Shown: positions 45,850 to 56,645 of the stretch, piece by piece | How the letters are laid out: every line of letters starts with the position of its first letter | Numbering within the stretch: the first letter of the stretch is position 1 | Made by a program: the position numbers and the translations under genes | From: an uncultured Anaerolineales bacterium | Lineage (GTDB): Bacteria > Chloroflexota > Anaerolineae > Anaerolineales > UBA11858 | Assembly (NCBI GenBank): GCA_964618295.1 | Contig: CAZTWV010000014.1 | Location: 1,288 to 65,287, forward strand | Direction: 5' to 3' | Length of the DNA stretch: 64,000 bases | The notes under the pieces: generated by a model | Told to the model about the DNA's origin: nothing | The model's database searches: none | What the model saw: only the letters and a program-made list of their open reading frames with translations

Positions 45850-45968
45850 TGTCATCGCGAGCGGCCGCAGGGAGCGCGGCGATCTGTTTTATGATACGGA
45901 AAATTGTATGTAAAGCAGATTTCCGTCCCTTTAAATCATAGATTGCTTCGCTGCGCTCGCAATGACAA
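45850..45968. repeat. MITE-like element, variant copy (terminal inverted repeats tgtcatcgcgag / ctcgcaatgaca)
   Basis: 12-nt TIRs and a subterminal agattgcttcgctgcgctcgcaatgaca arm are shared with copies at 46181 and 53043. The interior differs. Confidence 0.6.
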
Positions 45969-46065
45969 AATCCTGGGATCCAGCCAGCGTCCTCGCTGGC
46001 GTGAATGGACGATGAAGACCTCGGAGGTTGGTGTTGGCTTCTGCTGGATCGTTCCCGGTAAATAC

Positions 46066-46180: not shown

Positions 46181-46304
46181 TCTCATTGCGAGGAGGCCGC
46201 TAGGCCGACGCGGCAATCTCCTCGAACTGGAACGATCCCATTAGTTATTCAGATGATTATTTCTTCCTGAGACACAGATTGCTTCGCTGCGCTCGCAGTG
46301 ACAA
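46181..46304. repeat. MITE-like ~124-bp element (copy 1)
   Basis: Aligns along its whole length, in the same orientation, with 53043..53166 with scattered substitutions. TIR tctcattgcgag / ctcgcagtgaca. Confidence 0.75.
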
Positions 46305-46348
46305 ATGAAATACACAGCTCTGGGAGTGCTCCTGCCCCAATCTCCCAC

Positions 46349-47449
46349 TCACTCCTTGAGCTTGATTTTCGGCTGCGGCGGCTCCGGCTTCTCAGGGCGG
46401 CGGAAACGAACGATCACGTTTGGTAGAAATAACAGCCCGACGAAAACCAGCAGCAGACCGCCGAAGACCGGTGCAGGCACCGCGCCTGTCACCTCTGGAA
46501 CCAGGCCTCCCGGGTTGTAGGTGACTGCTTCCATCTCTTCGTCTTCAGTGCCAGCCGGAGCATCTGCCAGGCGGGCACTCAGGGAGCGGTTAACGCCGTC
46601 CCTGAGGCTGGAGGGTGAAGTGTAGGTCAGCTGGTATTCGCTTTTGAAAGAAGCTGCGTAGGCCTGGTAGATTTCATCCAAACTTCCGGTATCTTCTGCG
46701 AAGCTGTACACCCCGCCGCTGTTTTCCGCAAGATAGGTCAGGGCTTCAACATCCAGGGCGGTTTTCTCTGCCAGATCCTGGTCTGGATCGCCCAATCCGA
46801 TGGTGGAAATTGAAAGTCCGGCCGGGCCGATCTGCTGCAGGACCGTCTCCGGAGAGGATTCACTGAGGGTGTCCAGCCCGTCCGTGATGGCGACAATTGC
46901 CGCCCGTCCGCTGACACCCTCCATGATCCCGGCTGCCTCGACCAGGGCATCATACATGGCGGTGTCATCCTTCGCTTCCAGACTCTGAATTGCGGACAGG
47001 ATCAGATCCCGGTCTGTGGTCAAAGGCTGGACATAGTCCGTCTCGGTGTGGAAAGTCAGCAAACCGACCCGGTCTGCGGGTCGGAGCTGCTCCACGAACA
47101 GTACTGCGGCCTGCTTGGCGGCCTTTAGTTTATCGAGATAGAGCATGCTTCCGGAGATATCCACGGCCAGCAGCACATTCAGCGGTGGGATTTCACCGGC
47201 GCCGGTGATGCTCTCCGGCGGGATGACTTGACCGTTCTCCAGGAGCTGGATTCGGTCGGGGTCCACTCCCAGGGGCTGTCCCTGGCTGTCGCTGACCGCT
47301 ACATAGACAGTGACCTCGGGGAACTGTGAGGTATCGACCTGGGTGATCCGCACCCCGGGACCATCACCCTGAGGCAGAGGCTGGAAAGCGCTCATGCTGA
47401 GCAGGATGCTCAAAACCAGAATCAAGCGGGGGAAGGGGGATTGCTGCAT
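46349..47449 (-). CDS. secreted, C-terminally membrane-anchored von Willebrand factor A (vWA) domain protein
   Basis: Signal peptide LILVLSILLSMSAF, MIDAS VLLAVDISGSM (DxSxS) and later DGLDT. The C-terminal TM helix PAPVFGGLLLVFVGLLFLPNVIV is followed by a basic tail. Confidence 0.8.
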   Translation of the reverse strand: MQQSPFPRLILVLSILLSMSAFQPLPQGDGPGVRITQVDTSQFPEVTVYVAVSDSQGQPLGVDPDRIQLLENGQVIPPESITGAGEIPPLNVLLAVDISGSMLYLDKLKAAKQAAVLFVEQLRPADRVGLLTFHTETDYVQPLTTDRDLILSAIQSLEAKDDTAMYDALVEAAGIMEGVSGRAAIVAITDGLDTLSESSPETVLQQIGPAGLSISTIGLGDPDQDLAEKTALDVEALTYLAENSGGVYSFAEDTGSLDEIYQAYAASFKSEYQLTYTSPSSLRDGVNRSLSARLADAPAGTEDEEMEAVTYNPGGLVPEVTGAVPAPVFGGLLLVFVGLLFLPNVIVRFRRPEKPEPPQPKIKLKE

Positions 47450-47451
47450 GG

Positions 47452-48315
47452 TTATTTCCTTTCGTGGTAGACCAGCTCGGTGTGGCCCATTTTTATGGTC
47501 TGGCCTGAGCGCAGGCGGGTCTGTTCAATTTTCTTGCCGCCGATAAAAGTTCCACTCAGGCTGATGTCCTTGAGATTGAAATGAGAGTCCGCCCCGGTCA
47601 GCAGGGCGTGCTGGGGATCGATATCCGGATCGGGAAGCACAATATCCGCTTTTAAAGCGCTGCTCCCCAGATAGGCAGCGGGACCGCCGGATCGGATAAA
47701 TTTATCAAGGATGAATTCTGAACCCTGCATTTTACCGCTGGTCACCTCCAGCCAGGCTTTTGACAGCAGCAGGGCAATCAGGGCAATGAAAACCCCGATG
47801 GCTGCTCCCAGCAAGCTCAATCCCAGGGCTTTCCCGTAGAGCGGATTGTTGATCACGGAACCGATGCCTTCCAGGAGAGCACCTCCCAGCACCCCGCCCA
47901 GGGTTCCGCCCAGAGCAGGTTTCCAGATCTCGCTGGCGCTGGTGACCCCGAAGGCCAGTCCTAAAAGCAGGCCGAATACTCCCCAGCCCAGGGATCGGCC
48001 TGGAAAACCGCCGCCCAGGATCTGGAATAAAGCTTCGGCAACCGGTAGACCGACCGCGCCTCCCACCAGACCTAATCCTCCGTTGATCAGGCTGGATTTC
48101 AGAATCCGCAGCAAACGGCGGGAGATCAGCCCTTCAGAAAACCCGATCAGGACCCCGATGCTGAGTCCGATCAGACCTCCTACCGGGATTTCGCTCAGGT
48201 AGAGATTGGACCAGAAGGATAGTCCCAGGGCGTTGCTGGCCTGCCAGCCAATCAAACCGCCCATCGCTCCCAGTACGGCGTAATAATACAGCCTCATCGT
48301 TCTACTCATTTTCAT
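47452..48315 (-). CDS. polytopic Gly-rich membrane protein with C-terminal FHA domain
   Basis: About 7 glycine-rich hydrophobic helices are followed by an FHA pattern (LGSSALKADIVLPDPDIDPQHALL...DISLSGTFIGGKKI...LRSGQTIKMGHTELVY). Confidence 0.75.
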   Translation of the reverse strand: MKMSRTMRLYYYAVLGAMGGLIGWQASNALGLSFWSNLYLSEIPVGGLIGLSIGVLIGFSEGLISRRLLRILKSSLINGGLGLVGGAVGLPVAEALFQILGGGFPGRSLGWGVFGLLLGLAFGVTSASEIWKPALGGTLGGVLGGALLEGIGSVINNPLYGKALGLSLLGAAIGVFIALIALLLSKAWLEVTSGKMQGSEFILDKFIRSGGPAAYLGSSALKADIVLPDPDIDPQHALLTGADSHFNLKDISLSGTFIGGKKIEQTRLRSGQTIKMGHTELVYHERK

Positions 48316-48961
48316 CGGTTTGTTCTCCCTTCGATAAAGGTGAATCAGCGGTCAGGTTTCGCCAGCGGACTACACTGCGGGAATTTTGACCGGCTAATTC
48401 ATGGAAACCGTAATAATAACGTCCCTCCAGTTTGCCGTCCCGGTCCCGGATGAAAAACCCGGCCTTTCGGCTGTGGGGTTCGATCACCAGGGCAACCTGG
48501 TAGGGATGAGGGAAGAAATGGTTGTGAAGGAAAAGGTCGTAGTCGGATAAAAAGACGCTCATCCGGGGATGGGTGTGGTACCAGCCCACCAGCTCCTTCT
48601 CGGGATATTTTTCTTCCATGGTATCGTACAGCGTCAGCTGGCTGTCCTGTGTGAATGTCAGGTGAGCGCTGCCGTGCCGGATATAGCGGGCCGGCAGGCA
48701 GCGTTCGATGACAATGTATTCCTGTCCGGAAGCCTGGTCCGACCTCCAGTTGCCGATCAGCCAGCCCCCGACTTCATTCTCCAGGTCGCTGTGAGCGTGG
48801 GCGTTGGCCCTGGCGTAGGCTTTCTGGGTCATGTAAATCTCGGTCCCCGGGGCCCGAGGCTCGATTTGCTCGGGTTCTGAGCGCCAGCGCAAAGCGTGGG
48901 GGCGGGGGATAAAACCCGACCGGGGGATGGGGGCTTCGATGGGCAGCAAGCGGATGGTCAC
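48302..48961 (-). CDS. JAMM/MPN+ (JAB) metalloisopeptidase
   Basis: Catalytic Glu in ENEVGGWLIG and a complete JAMM motif GWYHTHPRMSVFLSDYD (HxHx7Sx2D). GTG start after gaggaagg. Confidence 0.85.
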   Translation of the reverse strand: MTIRLLPIEAPIPRSGFIPRPHALRWRSEPEQIEPRAPGTEIYMTQKAYARANAHAHSDLENEVGGWLIGNWRSDQASGQEYIVIERCLPARYIRHGSAHLTFTQDSQLTLYDTMEEKYPEKELVGWYHTHPRMSVFLSDYDLFLHNHFFPHPYQVALVIEPHSRKAGFFIRDRDGKLEGRYYYGFHELAGQNSRSVVRWRNLTADSPLSKGEQTDENE

Positions 48962-48997: not shown

Positions 48998-49264
48998 TCA
49001 GCCCGCAGTTACATCGGCGGTCATCACCAGCTGGTCGTTCTCCGGGACGCCGGCTTCTGCCAGGGTTTCTTCTTCCTGCAGTTCGCGGCCCAGGGCTTTG
49101 CTGTCCAGCCGGTAGCCCATCGGGCGGCCGTCCGGACCGGTGGTCGGCAGCTCCAGTGAGGTGGTCAGCTCCGGGATCAGATCCCGGATTTCAACATCAT
49201 CGGGGACTTCAGCGGTGCGGGTGCCTCCCGAGGGGAGCACCAGGGTTAAGGTTAGATCGGCCAT
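48998..49264 (-). CDS. ubiquitin-like beta-grasp protein (88 aa) ending ...TADVTAG
   Basis: RBS ggaggt is present. Size and alternating pattern are typical of a beta-grasp fold. The protein ends in Gly directly before the stop. It is a paralogue of the N-terminal domain of the adjacent E2 (63/88 identical by manual count). Confidence 0.75.
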   Translation of the reverse strand: MADLTLTLVLPSGGTRTAEVPDDVEIRDLIPELTTSLELPTTGPDGRPMGYRLDSKALGRELQEEETLAEAGVPENDQLVMTADVTAG

Positions 49265-49318
49265 GCTTTTACCTCCAGGGTAGTGTTCTGATTTATGGTC
49301 TCTGATGATAAAAAGTAA

Positions 49319-50173
49319 TTATTTCAGGCGGATATTGGGTTTTGATTTTTTGGTTTCTTTAATTTTGACCCGGGTCGGGCGCAGCAGCTCGCGGTTGTCA
49401 ACTGGAAAGGCATTCGGGTTTTTCTCGCGGTAGCTCCGGCTCCAGCGGGCAGCTTCCGGATCCCAGGGAAAAGGCGGTCGGGAGGGATCATCATGATAGT
49501 TCTTATACTGAACCATTTCACCGATCATCAGCACCAGACGGTCCAGGGATCTGCTGGCTGTCCACCAGGCAGCGTCGACGCAAACTGAACCGTTCTGGTG
49601 ATTGATGTTCGGGTGCCAGATTGGGGTCAGCCACTGCATCCCAGGCCAGCGCTGGGGATACTGGTTGTGAAGGTAGATCTCCACCTGGTGGTTGCTGCCA
49701 ATTTTGGGCTTGCCCTGTTTGTTGACCCCGACCACCCCCTTGCAGGTATAGGTCACGGTGTAGCGTTCGGGCGGAAGGCCTTTGCGGGCTGCTTCTGACT
49801 GAAATGAAATTAAATCGCTCCGGGAGGCCAGCTCCTGCATCCGCTGGTAATCGGCCCGCAGGCGGCGCATCCTTGGGCTTTGGTCGAGGGATATCCGGCT
49901 GTTCTTTGCGCCTGCCGTGATATCGGCCGTCAGCACCAGCCGGTCCTCTTCCGGGATACCGGCATCGGACAGGGTCTCGTTCTCCTGCAGCTCCCTGCCC
50001 AGGGCTTTGCTGTCCAGCCGGTAGCCCATGGGGCGGCCGTCGGGTCCGACGGTCGGTAAACCGAGCAGCGAGGTCAGCTCGGCCAGCAGATCGCGTACAG
50101 CGACATCATCGGGGATTTCCGCTTTGCGGGCTCCGCCGTTAGGCAGTACGATGGTCACGTCCAGTTCTGGCAT
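49319..50173 (-). CDS. Ubl - E2 (UBC-fold ubiquitin-conjugating enzyme) fusion protein
   Basis: Residues 1-88 form a Ubl domain. These are followed by E2 helix-1-like RMRRLRADYQRMQEL, then YPQRWPGMQWLTPIWHPNINHQNGSVCVD, which is the canonical UBC YP..pP...f.t.i.HPN(I)...G.(I/V)C motif with the catalytic Cys. Confidence 0.8.
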   Translation of the reverse strand: MPELDVTIVLPNGGARKAEIPDDVAVRDLLAELTSLLGLPTVGPDGRPMGYRLDSKALGRELQENETLSDAGIPEEDRLVLTADITAGAKNSRISLDQSPRMRRLRADYQRMQELASRSDLISFQSEAARKGLPPERYTVTYTCKGVVGVNKQGKPKIGSNHQVEIYLHNQYPQRWPGMQWLTPIWHPNINHQNGSVCVDAAWWTASRSLDRLVLMIGEMVQYKNYHDDPSRPPFPWDPEAARWSRSYREKNPNAFPVDNRELLRPTRVKIKETKKSKPNIRLK

Positions 50174-50196: not shown

Positions 50197-51006
50197 TCAG
50201 GGGTGGGAATGGGGGATCTGGCAGGTGCCGGTGATTCCCCAGCAGTCAGTGTGATGGCGGGTTTTACAGATCGGGCAGATCTTCACGCCCCGCGGGTCGT
50301 GTTCCTGGACAGGCTCCAGGCAGTAGGGGCAGATGTGCTCCACATCACCCACGAATGTAATCCCGCTGGCACGGGCGGGCGATTTACTCCTCTTGATTTT
50401 GGGCAGAGAAAGGTTGGGCTTCTGGTTGATCCGGGCCCGGATTGTACGGGTAGGTTCCCGATGCTGGCGGGTCCGGTTCAGGCGGGCTGAATCAGAGAAT
50501 CGTCCGAAAGAAAGCTGGCGGGCCGGGGGCTGGCTGGTCCGATTTTCCTCTGTTCTTGCTGTGGGCTGGATCAGCGGTTTGCGGAAAGCCCGCAGCGCCA
50601 GCATCAATCCGGCGGCAGCCAGGAAAAGCTGGATTAAAGCCTCCCAGTTCGGCCCGGTTTTCGGGGAGGAAAGGGTAATTCCCAGGAATCCTCCCGACAG
50701 GAGCCGGAAGAGCAGCAGGCTGAGGGTGGCAGCGCTGAAAGCAGTCAAGTTCCGAAGCAGCGGAGAATTCTCCCTTAATATCCGACGGGCGGAGAAGCCG
50801 GACAGCAGGCCAACAGCCAGCGGCAGGGTAAATTTCAGCAGGAGATAGGGGACAGCGTGCCGCGCAAAAAAGACCAGCAGCAGGGGCAGGCTGAGCAGGA
50901 CGGTTTGCAGGGCAGTGATCACAATTTTGCCTGCTGCCGAGTGCACAAATCTGTCTAGGGCGGTGGAACCGGTTTTCACCATCAGCGCTCCGCTGTGAAC
51001 CTTCAC
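50197..51006 (-). CDS. membrane protein (about 4 TM) with C-terminal prokaryotic RING-like Cys/His zinc finger (candidate E3)
   Basis: Four hydrophobic helices and a basic/Ser-Pro-rich linker are followed by CPYC-x14-CPIC-x4-H-x2-C-x6-C-x3-H at the extreme C-terminus. The GTG start overlaps the E1 stop (GTGA). Confidence 0.65.
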   Translation of the reverse strand: MKVHSGALMVKTGSTALDRFVHSAAGKIVITALQTVLLSLPLLLVFFARHAVPYLLLKFTLPLAVGLLSGFSARRILRENSPLLRNLTAFSAATLSLLLFRLLSGGFLGITLSSPKTGPNWEALIQLFLAAAGLMLALRAFRKPLIQPTARTEENRTSQPPARQLSFGRFSDSARLNRTRQHREPTRTIRARINQKPNLSLPKIKRSKSPARASGITFVGDVEHICPYCLEPVQEHDPRGVKICPICKTRHHTDCWGITGTCQIPHSHP

Positions 51007-52652
51007 GATCCTGAATCCTTCAGTCTAATCCGTCCCGCTGCCGGGTTTTGTTCTGGATCCTGGATGCGGATTGATTTACCAATCTTAATCCGCTCCCGGA
51101 GAGGGACTTCGGAAGCGGTCGGTTCAAAATGATTAAAATGGAGGGTTTCGTCGAGGTCCCCGGTCAGCTCGTAGAAGCGGTATTCGTAGCCGTCATTGGC
51201 CCGCAGGATATGCAGGGGAGGGACCCCGATGCTGGCCAGGGTGTGATCCAGGAAATCCTCTTCCCCGGTGATCAGGTGGGTCAGCTGGACCTCGCGCATT
51301 GCCCCGCAGCCGGGACAGTGGGCGGCTTCAAAGCTGACCGCGGAAAGCGGCTGCAGGGTCCGTTCCAGGGTCTGGCAGGTCCCGCATTCCAGGGCTAAAA
51401 CCAGCTCCTGGTCGAGCTCAATCACCGCCTGGTCCCCGAGGTCGACCCGGATCACCTGTAAAAGTTCTTTCAGGGTCGTGGTTCCGGCGCTGAGGGGTAA
51501 TTCGGTCACCTCGCCGTAAATCCAGTGACTCTCGCAGTCCTCGCGGGCGGTGTAAGCCGTGGTGTGCATCTGGTTGTTAAGGCCGTTGTAATGCACCACT
51601 TTTCCGGCCGGGACATCCATATCGTGGATCAGCTTGAGCGCTTCCTGGGACTGCATGGCGCCGATGATCGAGGCAATGGTCGGGGTGGTGGGGACCTTTC
51701 CCAGCAGAATGTTCTGGCGGGCCAGGAGGGGACAGGAGTAGCGCAGGGCCAAATCGCGGCGGGCCTGCTCGGTCAGGGTGCATTCGTAGCAGGCGCCCTG
51801 ACCGGGAATGAAAACCCGCACCAATCCCAGCAGTTCCTGGATGGCGCCGTCCACCCAGGGTTTGTTCATCCAGTGGGCAAAACGGTTAACCGCCAGACGG
51901 GCTTCCCGGTTGTCCAGGCAGCCGATCACCACATCCATCCGGCGCACAATCCCCAGGCCGAGGTCGGTGGTGACATCGCCGTGCAGATACTGGACCCGGG
52001 TCTGGGGGTTGAGCTCCTTGCCGCGGGCGGCGACCACCTCGGCTTTCTGGCGCCGGGCATCGGACTCCCGGAAGAGCACCGAGCGGCTCAGGTTGGCGGC
52101 TTCAATGGTGTCAAAATCAATGACGAAAATTTTCCCGACCCCCATCAGGGCCAGGTTTTTGACCACTTCGTTGCCCAGGGCACCGGCTCCAACCACCAGC
52201 ACACTGGCATCAGCAACTTTATCGCGCTCCCACCAGCTGATAAAATCAAAGGTTCCCAGGCGGTCGGTTTTCAGGTTGGGGATCTTGAGCGGTTTTTCCT
52301 TGGCTACCGGCAGGCGCCTGGGACCGTCCGGTCCTTCGCCGGGGCGCTGGATCTTGATTGGTTTGGCAGGCCTGGTTTCATCCTGGGCCAGTCCGGCGGC
52401 CCGGACCAGGTTGTCGCCCTTCAGGGGATGCACAAACCAGCCCACCCCGGGCCGGGCTTCAATCAAGTTGTGCTCGGCCAGGATTTTTAAGGCTTCGCGC
52501 AGACTGGAGCGGCTGACATCAAGCTGTTTGCCGAGTTCGCGCTCGCCGGGAAGGTGCTCCCCGGGCTGGAAATCCCCGTTCAGGATCCGGGCGGCGATCT
52601 GTCCGGCGACGATTTCCGAAAGCGATTTGCGGGGCAGGGGTTGAAGGTTCAT
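51003..52652 (-). CDS. GntR-type winged-HTH fused to E1-like (ThiF/MoeB/UBA) adenylating enzyme
   Basis: wHTH: LPGERELGKQLDVSRSSLREALKILAEHNLIEARPGVGWFV. E1: VLVVGAGALGNEVVKNLALMGVGKIFVIDFDTIEAANLSRSVLF, plus CxxC pairs CYEC and CPGC (and CGTC). The start is set at the ATG at 52652, because the ORF-track extension to 52790 runs through an intergenic repeat. Confidence 0.8.
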   Translation of the reverse strand: MNLQPLPRKSLSEIVAGQIAARILNGDFQPGEHLPGERELGKQLDVSRSSLREALKILAEHNLIEARPGVGWFVHPLKGDNLVRAAGLAQDETRPAKPIKIQRPGEGPDGPRRLPVAKEKPLKIPNLKTDRLGTFDFISWWERDKVADASVLVVGAGALGNEVVKNLALMGVGKIFVIDFDTIEAANLSRSVLFRESDARRQKAEVVAARGKELNPQTRVQYLHGDVTTDLGLGIVRRMDVVIGCLDNREARLAVNRFAHWMNKPWVDGAIQELLGLVRVFIPGQGACYECTLTEQARRDLALRYSCPLLARQNILLGKVPTTPTIASIIGAMQSQEALKLIHDMDVPAGKVVHYNGLNNQMHTTAYTAREDCESHWIYGEVTELPLSAGTTTLKELLQVIRVDLGDQAVIELDQELVLALECGTCQTLERTLQPLSAVSFEAAHCPGCGAMREVQLTHLITGEEDFLDHTLASIGVPPLHILRANDGYEYRFYELTGDLDETLHFNHFEPTASEVPLRERIKIGKSIRIQDPEQNPAAGRIRLKDSGS

Positions 52653-52853
52653 AGGGTTTTGTCCGGGGTACTGGTATGCTGGTCTGACCGGTATACCGGG
52701 TTTATAGCAGATCGGGCCCGCCTTGTCAAGCGGGGGCTGAAAAACCCTGCCAGCGTCCTCGCTGGCGTGACTTTTATTCTCTTGAAGCATTCAAGGCTTC
52801 GGGATATTTCCTCTTTCCCCGCTGGTTTTCGGTCGGTGATATGCTTGGACACA

Positions 52854-52970
52854 CTCATCAGCGAGGACGCTGATGGGAGCTTGGATAGATAGCCAACCTC
52901 CGGGGTACCTGCGTGACCTTGGAAGTTGAGGGTGACGTTCCGGGTGAGTAATCTGGTTTTATCTGCCCGG
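52854..52970. repeat. 117-bp direct repeat, copy 1
   Basis: ctcatcagcgaggacgctgatggg...gccaacctccggggtacctg...ctggttttatc.gcccgg aligns with 53283..53399. Confidence 0.75.
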
Positions 52971-53042: not shown

Positions 53043-53166
53043 TGTCATTGCGAGGAGGCCGCCAGGCCGACGCGGCAATCTTCTTGAATTGGAACGATCC
53101 TATTAGTAATTCAGATGATCATTTCTTCCTGAGATATAGATTGCTTCGCTTCGCTCGCAATGACAA
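53043..53166. repeat. MITE-like ~124-bp element (copy 2)
   Basis: tgtcattgcgaggaggccgccaggccgacgcggcaatct...agattgcttcgcttcgctcgcaatgacaa has a perfect 12-nt TIR. It is in direct orientation relative to 46181..46304. Confidence 0.75.
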
Positions 53167-53282
53167 AAGAAAAATTCGCTCCAGCCAGTGTTTCGCACAG
53201 GTGTATTGGAAGGGAAGACCTCCGAGGTCTGGATCTGCTGCCAGCCGCAGTCGGTGTTCGGCCGGCGGCATGTTCGGATAAT

Positions 53283-53399
53283 CTCATCAGCGAGGACGCT
53301 GATGGGTGCTTGGATGGATAGCCAACCTCCGGGGTACCTGGGTGATCCCGGAGGTTGGTGGACCCGTTGCGGGTGAGTATGCTGGTTTTATCCGCCCGG
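53283..53399. repeat. 117-bp direct repeat, copy 2
   Basis: See 52854..52970. The two copies bracket MITE-like copy 2. Confidence 0.75.
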
Positions 53400-53613: not shown

Positions 53614-55379
<1,766 letters not shown>

Positions 55380-55383
55380 GCCC

Positions 55384-55677
55384 ATGAACGAAGAATCGGA
55401 CCGCTCCCCTGAAAAAATATTTCCCGCTCTGGTCCGGGAAGGGCTGGGTGTGCTCAGCATCGGCTGGGATCTGGCTCTCCCCATAGTCGGCGGGGTGCTG
55501 CTCGGCCATTTTCTGGACCAGTGGTTGGGCTCCGGATACACCTTCACGCTGGGTTTGCTGGTGCTGGGGGTGATGATCGGTTATTTCAATCTTTCCCGGC
55601 TGATACACCGCCTGAATCAGCAGGATAAGAAACGGAAAGAGCTGGAAGAAGGGACCGGGGAGGAGAAAGACGGATGA
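55384..55677 (+). CDS. atpQ: AtpZ/AtpI-like small membrane protein of N-ATPase operons
   Basis: Two TM helices (GLGVLSIGWDLALPIVGGVLLGHFLD and FTLGLLVLGVMIGYF). The position after atpC matches the N-ATPase gene order. Confidence 0.6.
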   Translation: MNEESDRSPEKIFPALVREGLGVLSIGWDLALPIVGGVLLGHFLDQWLGSGYTFTLGLLVLGVMIGYFNLSRLIHRLNQQDKKRKELEEGTGEEKDG

Positions 55678-55955
55678 TGAGCTGGGTCTGGCTCCTGGTT
55701 GGACTGGGCACGGGACTGGTGATCTGGTTTTCCCAGCGGTCAGCGGTCAAACGCCTGACCCCGGAACGGGCTGCGGCCGGCCGGAGGTCGATTGTGCTGG
55801 GTGCCGTGCTGCGCTGGACCTTGAGCGCCCTGGTCCTGATTCTGGCCCTGGAGCAGGGGATTGGAAGCGGTCTGTTCGCTTTTGGAGGTCTGATGACCGC
55901 CCGCTGGCTGGGGATTTTTTCCTTGCAGGTTTTTCCCCTGCCGGAAATTGAGTAA
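55674..55955 (+). CDS. atpR: N-ATPase AtpR-like membrane protein
   Basis: 93 aa with 3 TM helices and intramembrane/interfacial Arg residues (LRWTLSAL, TARWLGIF). Coupled by ATGA to the preceding gene. Confidence 0.55.
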   Translation: MMSWVWLLVGLGTGLVIWFSQRSAVKRLTPERAAAGRRSIVLGAVLRWTLSALVLILALEQGIGSGLFAFGGLMTARWLGIFSLQVFPLPEIE

Positions 55956-55976
55956 AGGATGAGGAGGATTTAAGCT

Positions 55977-56645
55977 ATGCAGGAAGTATTTCCGGAGGTT
56001 GCCTTCACCGTGATGGGGATTCCGGTTCGTGATACCGTGGTTTCATCCTGGGTGATGATGGCTCTGATTGTGGGGCTGGTGCTGCTGGTCCGGCGCTTGA
56101 AACCGACCGCCCTTGAGATGGTGGTTGATTTCCTGACCGATTTTATCAGCGAGATCATGCGCCGGCCGGCCGGTCCCTTTTTGCCCCTGGTGGGATCGCT
56201 GGCGCTGTATATCGGTGTCGCCAACGTGATCGGCCTGGTGCCTTTCTTGAAGTCGCCTACCAGCGATATCAACACCTCGATTGCCCTGGCACTGGTTGTT
56301 TTCGTAGCCGTGCATGTCTACGGGGTCCGGATCATGGGGCTGGGTGCCTACATAAAAAGCCTGGCCTCCCCGATTTTCCTGCTGCCCCTGGAGCTGATCA
56401 GCCAGGTCAGTCGGACAATTTCCCTCAGCATCCGGCTTTTCGGCAACGTCTTCAGCGCGGAGATTATCATTGCGATTTTGTTTGCCCTGGCACCGCTGAT
56501 TGTGCCCCTGCCTCTGCAGGGATTCAGTATTTTTACCGGCCTGCTGCAGGCCTATATTTTCGCCGCCCTGGCCGCGGTCTATATCGCGGCCGGCCTGCCA
56601 GCCCGGCAGGAAGAATCCGGGGCGGAAGCAGAAATTGAAAACTAA
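55977..56645 (+). CDS. atpB: ATPase a subunit
   Basis: Conserved stator arginine context ISLSIRLFGNVFSAEI (R-x-x-G-N). 5-6 TM helices. Confidence 0.85.
   Translation: MQEVFPEVAFTVMGIPVRDTVVSSWVMMALIVGLVLLVRRLKPTALEMVVDFLTDFISEIMRRPAGPFLPLVGSLALYIGVANVIGLVPFLKSPTSDINTSIALALVVFVAVHVYGVRIMGLGAYIKSLASPIFLLPLELISQVSRTISLSIRLFGNVFSAEIIIAILFALAPLIVPLPLQGFSIFTGLLQAYIFAALAAVYIAAGLPARQEESGAEAEIEN

Follow-up and report, generated by a model that had tools for sequence, protein, structure and literature searches.

A free and an E2-fused ubiquitin-like paralog in a conserved Anaerolineae cassette, with a probable processing site at the fusion junction

The 64,000 nucleotides analysed here (the window) belong to contig CAZTWV010000014.1 of an uncultured Anaerolineales bacterium. 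The minus strand carries a seven-gene cassette that encodes two ubiquitin-like (Ubl) modules, one as a free protein and the other fused in front of a ubiquitin-conjugating enzyme (E2) domain. The fused Ubl-E2 is probably a pre-protein from which the JAMM metalloprotease of the cassette releases a second Ubl fit for conjugation, leaving a mature E2; this reading draws on comparisons among sequences. The two modules would be ancient paralogs of one ubiquitin-fold modifier, within a complete cassette of activating enzyme (E1), E2, RING-type ligase (E3) and JAMM. The free copy would be born mature, its C-terminal Gly88 being directly usable by the E1, and the adjacent JAMM metalloprotease would cut the Gly88|Ala89 bond of the fused pre-protein. 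One cut would yield both a second conjugatable Ubl and an E2 with an unblocked N-terminal helix. The sequence relationships, the conservation of junction and linker, the age of the duplication, the intact JAMM and E2 motifs and the ubiquitin-like fold of the Ubl come directly from the analysis, and we infer the cleavage, its enzyme and the shared E1 activating both Ubls. The features concerned are the following.

49319-50173, minus strand: Ubl-E2 gene, 284 amino acids (translation; Pfam YukD and UQ_con).
49910-50173, minus strand: fused Ubl module, residues 1-88 of the Ubl-E2, ending ...LTADITAG, with the Gly88 codon at 49910-49912 (Pfam YukD, E 2e-10).
49880-49909, minus strand: linker AKNSRISLDQ, from Gly88 to the first E2 helix, with the proposed P1' residue Ala89 at 49907-49909 (ortholog alignment).
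49319-49879, minus strand: E2 core with UBC fold, HPN at 49607-49615, Cys198 at 49580-49582, basic tail KPNIRLK and stop (Pfam UQ_con, 4e-11).
48998-49264, minus strand: free Ubl gene, 88 amino acids, ...TADVTAG then TGA, with its own GGAGG ribosome-binding site (translation; Pfam YukD, E 4e-10).
49073-49138, minus strand: identical 22-residue core block G43-E64 in the free Ubl; fused counterpart at 49982-50047 (paralog alignment).
48302-48961, minus strand: JAMM/MPN+ metalloprotease, proposed processing enzyme, with the HTHPRMSVFLSDYD motif at 48536-48577 (Pfam JAB and Prok-JAB; best PDB match 6fjv).

The free Ubl aligned by BLASTP with residues 1-88 of the Ubl-E2 over 63/88 identities and 77/88 positives, without gaps (E = 4e-45), which confirmed the paralogy and the manual count of a first-pass annotation of this DNA. 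Nucleotide identity was 194/264 (73%), and the same pair was recovered by a repeat search. Both modules matched the Pfam family YukD, PF08817 (40.9 and 41.7 bits, cut-off 27). The translations also bore out that the free copy stops exactly where the fused copy enters its linker: the former ends in ...LVMTADVTAG with TGA directly after Gly88, and the latter reads ...LVLTADITAG-AKNSRISLDQ-SPRMRRL... and continues into the E2. Each of the two genes has its own Shine-Dalgarno sequence. The identical block, GPDGRPMGYRLDSKALGRELQE, spans positions 43-64 and is 22 residues long, not 26 as first annotated. Of the two DNA ranges given for it at the time, the first agreed with the one found here (49073-49138) and the second, 50000-50060, was slightly off (49982-50047). 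Inside the block lies a 33-nt exact match (49088-49120 and 49997-50029).

An AlphaFold2 (AF2) model of the isolated free Ubl had a score of 93 in the predicted local distance difference test (pLDDT) and a beta-grasp fold, with strands at 3-9, 15-21, 48-55 and 78-85, a helix at 26-36 and a protruding T-A-G tail. The solved structures nearest to it were ubiquitin (TM-score 0.71-0.85) and Caldiarchaeum ubiquitin. Lys56, in the core block (49097-49099 in the free copy, 50006-50008 in the fused one), was the sole lysine conserved in both paralogs and is the single lysine of the free Ubl in the window. Its conservation makes it a candidate chain-forming or acceptor site. A correspondence to ubiquitin Lys48 was considered and rejected, as a global alignment does not match the two positions.

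Homologs of the Ubl-E2 amounted to >1,900 database proteins, and the junction was read in the top 120, all of which were two-domain fusions, the named sources being Anaerolineae or Chloroflexota. A genome scan covering one genome per species gave 210 relatives, and synteny and ortholog counts were taken from the best 80 loci. Three of these end at a contig edge without free Ubl, and 77 are informative for the free and fused pair. Free Ubl C-termini were read in 75 loci, the JAMM motif in 75 orthologs and the E2 motif in 80. The first-pass annotation had called for homologous loci to be inspected for the duplication and for the terminal Gly, and both were found: the two copies were present in 77/77 informative loci, and the end of the fused Ubl, LTADITAG, was invariant in the 120 close homologs and in the 80 loci. 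The segment that follows Gly88 was 4-11 residues long in the 80 orthologs with a mean identity of 33%, whereas the Ubl had 77% and the E2 core 79%. The P1' residue was A in 61, G in 8, S in 8 and K in 3 of the orthologs, hence small in 77/80.

An origin of the fusion in a lost stop codon or a frameshift of one assembly, that is, an assembly or annotation artefact, would fit with E2-only relatives in which Ubl and E2 are adjacent separate genes. It is next to impossible and already refuted, as the same unbroken open reading frame recurs in the >1,900 database homologs and in 80 species-level genomes that are independent of each other.

Distant homologs, sampled as representatives of 50%-identity clusters, keep the same junction. 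Among these, 26 had a Ubl upstream of an E2, and Ala-Gly stood at the junction in 20/20 of those aligning to the Ubl end; the distant fusions with Ala-Gly were 31-44% identical to the Ubl-E2 of the window. Most stand-alone E2 homologs (76/111) start at the equivalent of positions 85-99, so that the proposed cut would leave a natural E2 N-terminus. Furthermore, the fused Ubl was the sole Ubl in some operons. At L081-L083, with the order E1 / zinc finger / Ubl-E2 / JAB, a search of 10.7 kb with a Ubl hidden Markov model found no second Ubl, and the operon at L088 reads E1 / Ubl-E2 / JAB. Such a pathway would be left without substrate unless the fusion is cut.

The free Ubl terminated exactly at Gly in 69/75 genomes, which answers the concern, raised at first pass, that it might prove to have a C-terminal extension; in the remaining 6/75 Anaerolineae copies Ala-Gly was followed by a short propeptide (TAG-GR, TAG-CPQGGK or TAG-CLDSGR). 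Free Ubls of relatives ended in VTAG-STRG, VTAG-GGCRG, PTAG-MNSLG, TVAG-NS or MTAG-R. Because free Ubls carry such propeptides, an Ala-Gly|X endopeptidase is required in this family regardless of the fusion. E2-only relatives have their separate Ubl gene immediately upstream of the E2 gene, with an overlap in L090. This arrangement suggests an origin of the fusion in read-through from a propeptide into the E2. Finally, the positions invariant in free and fused copies alike are as expected if the same E1, E2 and JAMM act on both. The comparative part of the earlier proposal of a JAMM site at the TAG-A junction has therefore held, with an invariant Gly, Ala-Gly in distant fusions and the precedents of the Bub system and of BilC described below; the cleavage itself would follow from these comparisons.

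Several observations weigh against cleavage. With the free Ubl the operon already has a mature modifier, so that the fused copy is not required as a source of Ubl here. In a related subfamily (P0152, P0194, P0234) the N-terminal Ubl is degenerate and lacks Ala-Gly, hence an uncleaved architecture can persist. Paralog-specific residues cluster on helix alpha1 (positions 27-36), a surface that might just as well contact the E2 within the same molecule. For the full Ubl-E2, an AF2 model from a 41-sequence alignment had a mean pLDDT of 55, with the Ubl below 50, values at which packing and exposure of the junction are unreadable. The contigs bearing the sole-Ubl operons were of limited length.

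With these points goes another explanation, that the fused Ubl is permanent and serves the E2 in cis as a regulatory or docking domain, the free Ubl alone being conjugated. It might recruit the E1 or the JAMM protein, bind the backside of the E2, or accept the free Ubl on Lys56 (auto-conjugation), this being the only invariant Lys in both paralogs. A second source of Ubl would be unneeded with a free copy that already ends at Gly, the diagnostic positions 28, 31, 35, 36, 38 and 42 lie on or beside helix alpha1 as fits an E2-contact surface, and the subfamily lacking Ala-Gly attests to the viability of an uncleaved form. We nevertheless consider a permanent fusion unlikely. Integrated, uncleaved Ubl domains usually lose the C-terminal tail motif. 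Here T82, D84, I85, T86, A87 and G88 were 100% conserved with a hypervariable linker next to them, Ala-Gly was kept in distant fusions, in some operons no Ubl other than the fused one accompanies E1, E2 and JAB, and the Bub system is a direct precedent for cleavage.

To date the duplication, a tree was built of 157 modules, 76 free and 81 fused. The two kinds fell into two clades with no mixing. Mean identity was 0.80 for free copies between genomes and 0.77 for fused copies between genomes, versus 0.71 for free against fused within the same genome. Because of this reciprocal monophyly, the duplication predates species divergence, and wholesale concerted evolution, or wholesale gene conversion, is ruled out. 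The fixed differences between the paralogs are at positions 28, 31, 35, 36, 38 and 42, mainly on or just after helix alpha1. Residues diagnostic of the fused type are D28, S35, L36 and I85; position 85 was invariably I in the fused copy and was V in 76% of the free copies. In both paralogs, columns 43-62 were about 100% conserved across 76 genomes, and the tail residues T82, D84, T86, A87 and G88 were essentially invariant in all genomes. Judging from the alignments, the duplication is old and both copies are strongly constrained.

At first pass, the identical core block had been ascribed to either gene conversion or strong constraint. The second part stands: since the core is invariant in both paralogs everywhere, constraint at the protein level suffices, and the identity of the core would be explained by purifying selection on a surface common to the shared enzymes. 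Ongoing conversion between the adjacent copies, in place of protein selection, could also have kept the core block identical and the two copies similar overall. Of the 19 degenerate codons for identical residues of the core, 14 were identical in the window, where local codon usage predicts 7.2 (p about 0.001), and the core DNA contains the exact run of 33 nt. Over 75 genomes, identical codons at identical residues of the core had a frequency of 0.554 within genomes versus 0.432 between genomes. For the rest of the Ubl these values were 0.436 and 0.367, so that part of the within-genome excess lies outside the core, where it is expected from genome-wide codon bias. In addition, free and fused copies were separated in 76/76 genomes, orthologs being closer to each other than to the paralog of the same genome, and each paralog has retained its fixed diagnostic residues. 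Conversion as the main cause is thus quite improbable. Apart from the modest within-genome excess of synonymous codons, it found no support, and this excess is a weak hint that short-tract conversion in the core may be, at most, an occasional and minor contributor.

The separation of the two copies also leaves room for a two-modifier code with a switch. The two Ubls would then be non-redundant, and a regulated JAMM cut would activate a pro-E2 and release a distinct Ubl. Free and fused Ubl would have been kept apart through all of Anaerolineae history with differing helix-alpha1 surfaces, a Ubl 4-11 residues upstream would mask the E1- and E3-binding N-terminal helix of the pro-E2, and the distinct Ubl would be freed 1:1 with its E2. 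We regard this elaboration of the cleavage reading as doubtful.

A locus of a distant lineage, L084, has a free and fused pair too. There (1304-2425) a free Ubl with a propeptide (PTAG|MNSLG) adjoins a Ubl-E2 in the reverse order. The two L084 copies are 55% identical to each other and 34-39% identical to the Ubls of the window. As they are closer to each other, the pair either had an independent origin or was homogenised in that lineage. If the two Ubls are indeed distinct modifiers, the L084 pair would mean that the free-plus-fused arrangement was selected repeatedly.

Other architectures were met among the relatives. P0251 consists of two Ubls in tandem, each boundary bearing Ala-Gly. In P0152 the degenerate Ubl-E2 is followed by a second Ubl ending ATVAG|C, a long region and a TIR-like domain, assigned by eye. 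P0140 reads Ubl-VTAG|VC..., an insert, then E2. At L091 (4732-5901) a TIR-domain protein has as neighbours a Ubl-E2 gene and an additional E1 / E2 / Ubl set. A link to defence may exist in some branches of the family. Fused-type fragments in P0143, P0151, P0170 and P0212 were considered as natural split genes and discarded as frameshifted or chimeric assemblies.

The enzymes of the cassette appear intact. The E2 aligned to UBE2K/N/D with HPN in place and Cys198 in register with the catalytic Cys, and HPN...C was present in 80/80 orthologs. The JAMM motif HxHx7Sx2D (HTHPRMSVFLSDYD in the window) was intact in 75/75 orthologs. The best PDB match of the JAMM protein was 6fjv, the Caldiarchaeum Rpn11 homolog; CsRpn11 processes the precursor of archaeal ubiquitin so that its terminal Gly is exposed (PMC6043591). 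Among PDB entries, the closest to the E1 were the active adenylation domains of UBA7 and UBA1.

A C-terminal basic-hydrophobic tail is common to the E1, the Ubl-E2 and the vWA protein, where it follows the transmembrane helix, and it is the same in L001-L080. In the window the tails are ...GRIRLKDSGS for the E1 (51003-51040), ...KPNIRLK for the E2 (49319-49345) and ...QPKIKLKE for the vWA protein (46349-46375). The pattern [ILV]x[ILVF] was found within the last 9 residues of 50/70 E1, 77/80 Ubl-E2 and 61/64 vWA orthologs, versus 0/71 FHA, 2/75 JAMM and 0/75 RING orthologs. Distant E2 homologs have similar tails. The Ubl is very acidic by manual residue count. The tail may be a Ubl-binding strand resembling a SUMO-interacting motif, a docking motif or a membrane-binding motif.

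Along the minus strand the seven genes encode, in order, an E1 with a GntR domain, a transmembrane RING protein, the Ubl-E2, the free Ubl, the JAMM protein, a transmembrane FHA protein and a vWA protein. The four not yet listed are given here.

51003-52790, minus strand: E1 with N-terminal GntR winged helix, ThiF/E1 adenylation domain and C-terminal region (Pfam ThiF 1e-54, GntR 5e-19; best PDB matches, UBA7/UBA1 adenylation domains).
50197-51006, minus strand: candidate E3, multi-pass membrane protein with a C-terminal RING-like zinc finger (Pfam Prok-RING_1, E 9e-6).
47452-48315, minus strand: multi-pass membrane protein with a C-terminal FHA domain (Pfam FHA 8.5e-12; synteny in 80 loci).
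46349-47449, minus strand: vWA protein, last gene of the cassette, with an N-terminal signal or transmembrane segment and a C-terminal transmembrane segment (Pfam VWA_2 1e-15; synteny).

The Pfam scan covered all seven proteins at E <= 0.1. The RING label is weak, as Prok-RING_1 scored 26 bits for a cut-off of 29.1; the pattern of Cys/His ligands is kept in orthologs. Family-level names for the Ubl, Ubl-E2 and RING proteins were not found with PADLOC and NCBIfam, and scans with Rfam and for promoters and terminators gave nothing relevant to the cassette. The GntR-type winged helix of the E1 lies at 52430-52620 of the window (residues ~58-120; Pfam 4.9e-19) and matches PdhR, FadR and NanR in the PDB. 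E1 orthologs at other loci are alike in length, about 540-610 residues. It is uncommon for an E1 to carry a transcription-factor domain, a hint that the operon may regulate itself.

The order E1 / RING / Ubl-E2 / Ubl / JAMM / FHA / vWA was constant across the best 80 of the 210 loci. Nearly all informative genomes are labelled Anaerolineae or Chloroflexota. Loss of the free Ubl was considered for 5/80 loci and rejected: two have masked runs of N (L041, L058) and three are at contig ends, so that no real loss occurred. In L041 the visible end of the free Ubl still reads ...TADVTAG-stop despite the N run. One full cassette (L043, MFFQ01000033.1), of 75% identity, bears the label Candidatus Eisenbacteria, which may be due to mis-binning or horizontal transfer. 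With a gene order fixed in 77/77 informative species-level genomes, the cassette resembles a housekeeping or signalling module more than a mobile defence island.

Genes flanking the cassette (43-56 kb) were judged by eye only. Those beyond its edges differ between genomes; not being conserved, they give no functional clue. A 128-nt direct repeat brackets the cassette (46183-46310 and 53045-53172, 91% identical, 6862 nt apart). Further common intergenic elements around it lie at 52824-52970 and 53253-53399, and also at 45938-45970. The motif GATTGCTTCGCTNCGCTCGCAATGACA has three copies in the window, all within the two intergenic regions that flank the cassette. An Rfam search of the flanking repeats gave no family match. 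Directly upstream, on the plus strand, is an ATP synthase operon (53620-56645, assigned by eye), with the beta subunit at 53620-55044, epsilon at 55041-55379, two small membrane proteins and an a-subunit-like protein at 55977-56645. We take this gene order to be reminiscent of N-type ATPase operons.

To our knowledge, complete E1 / E2 / RING / deubiquitinase / Ubl systems were long thought absent from bacteria. In a broad survey, the complete ubiquitin toolkit was found in none of the bacterial genomes analysed (PMC4327156). Here is a complete bacterial set whose modifier has a predicted fold closest to ubiquitin itself. It would be a bacterial pathway with a Cys-E2 and an E3 in which the modifier is encoded both mature and as a Ubl-E2 pre-protein, by a mechanism that has a close precedent in Bub. 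If the fusion is cleaved, the principle of the Ubl-E2 pre-protein would extend from the serine-based Bub type to a cysteine-based pathway containing an E3, and bacteria would have a parallel to eukaryotic ubiquitin fusion genes. The free and fused pair offers a simple, testable entry into such a pathway, with one protease, one scissile bond and two modifiers that can be distinguished by mass.

Among known systems, the nearest to the fusion itself is Bub. The Ubl-E2 protein BubAB of Citrobacter is cut by the JAB domain of BubCD right after a conserved Gly, as established by experiment (bioRxiv 10.1101/2024.11.21.623953). As in Type I Bub, Ubl and E2 here share one polypeptide, the Ubl being N-terminal and the junction marked by a conserved Gly, and a JAB/JAMM protein is encoded in the same operon; the cut after Gly, shown by experiment in Bub, would have its counterpart here. 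In contrast, catalysis in the Bub E2 relies on a Ser (with His and Asp) and oxyester intermediates, whereas the window has HPN...Cys198, and JAB is fused to the E1 in BubCD, whereas JAMM and E1 are here separate and three genes apart. The Bub operon also has the DUF6527 serine protease BubE and neither an E3 nor a second, free Ubl; the cassette of the window has a membrane RING protein, FHA, vWA and the free Ubl paralog. Pfam found no DUF6527 in the seven cassette proteins at E <= 0.1. The cassette is therefore not a Bub operon, given its Cys-E2, its separate JAB and E1, the DUF6527 not found and the presence of RING, FHA, vWA and a second Ubl.

The Bil system likewise has genes for a Ubl, an E2, a JAMM protein and an E1, and BilC pre-processes its Ubl between Gly and Ala. 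However, Bil is a patchy, four-gene defence system without RING E3 or Ubl-E2 fusion, whereas the present cassette is lineage-wide, with RING, FHA and vWA fixed. The PADLOC models for BilA, BilB and BilC gave no matches, the JAMM protein matching generic JAB models only, and the BilD model matched the E1 weakly (2.8e-7), over the adenylation domain only. With the three models unmatched and an E3 present, the cassette is not Bil.

Burroughs, Iyer and Aravind reportedly predicted, in 2011, bacterial operons with E1 / E2 / RING / JAB, and are said to have proposed that YukD-like Ubls are conjugated there. The cassette fits such RING-associated systems; our literature search found no experimental work on this bacterial family. 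With YukD/EsaB the two Ubls share PF08817, above threshold in both. Unlike YukD/EsaB, their neighbours in the window and in the 80 loci are E1, E2, RING, JAMM, FHA and vWA and not type VII secretion genes such as those for an FtsK/EssC ATPase and WXG100 substrates; no type VII-related Pfam family was found in the seven cassette proteins, the flanking open reading frames (43-56 kb) being judged by eye only.

In eukaryotic fusion precursors (polyubiquitin, Ub-L40/UBA52 and Ub-S27a/RPS27A), as here, the modifier is encoded in a fusion as well as by other genes, and with a functional partner 1:1. Release after the terminal Gly is known for these precursors, and would apply here by virtue of conservation. 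Unlike in eukaryotes, the partner is the cognate E2, the proposed protease a JAMM and not a Cys-type deubiquitinase, and the copies are diverged (72%) instead of identical.

The operon of Caldiarchaeum subterraneum (PMC5654768, PMC6043591) unites, like the present one, E1, a UBC-type E2, RING, JAMM and Ubl. The JAMM protein of the window is nearest to CsRpn11 among solved structures, and the Ubl model matches CsUb. Caldiarchaeum ubiquitin has a Gly-Gly end and a 9-residue propeptide and is encoded by a single gene. In contrast, the Ubls described here have an Ala-Gly tail in all copies, are YukD-like and form two paralogs, one of them fused to the E2. The membrane-anchored RING, the GntR domain on the E1 and the FHA and vWA genes also differ from Caldiarchaeum. 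In the Caldiarchaeum type the JAMM cleaves the modifier precursor and the conjugates; the JAMM protein of the window, with its intact catalytic motif and its similarity to CsRpn11, might do likewise. On composition and sequence affinity, the cassette is closest to the Caldiarchaeum-type E1 / E2 / RING / Rpn11 / Ub operon.

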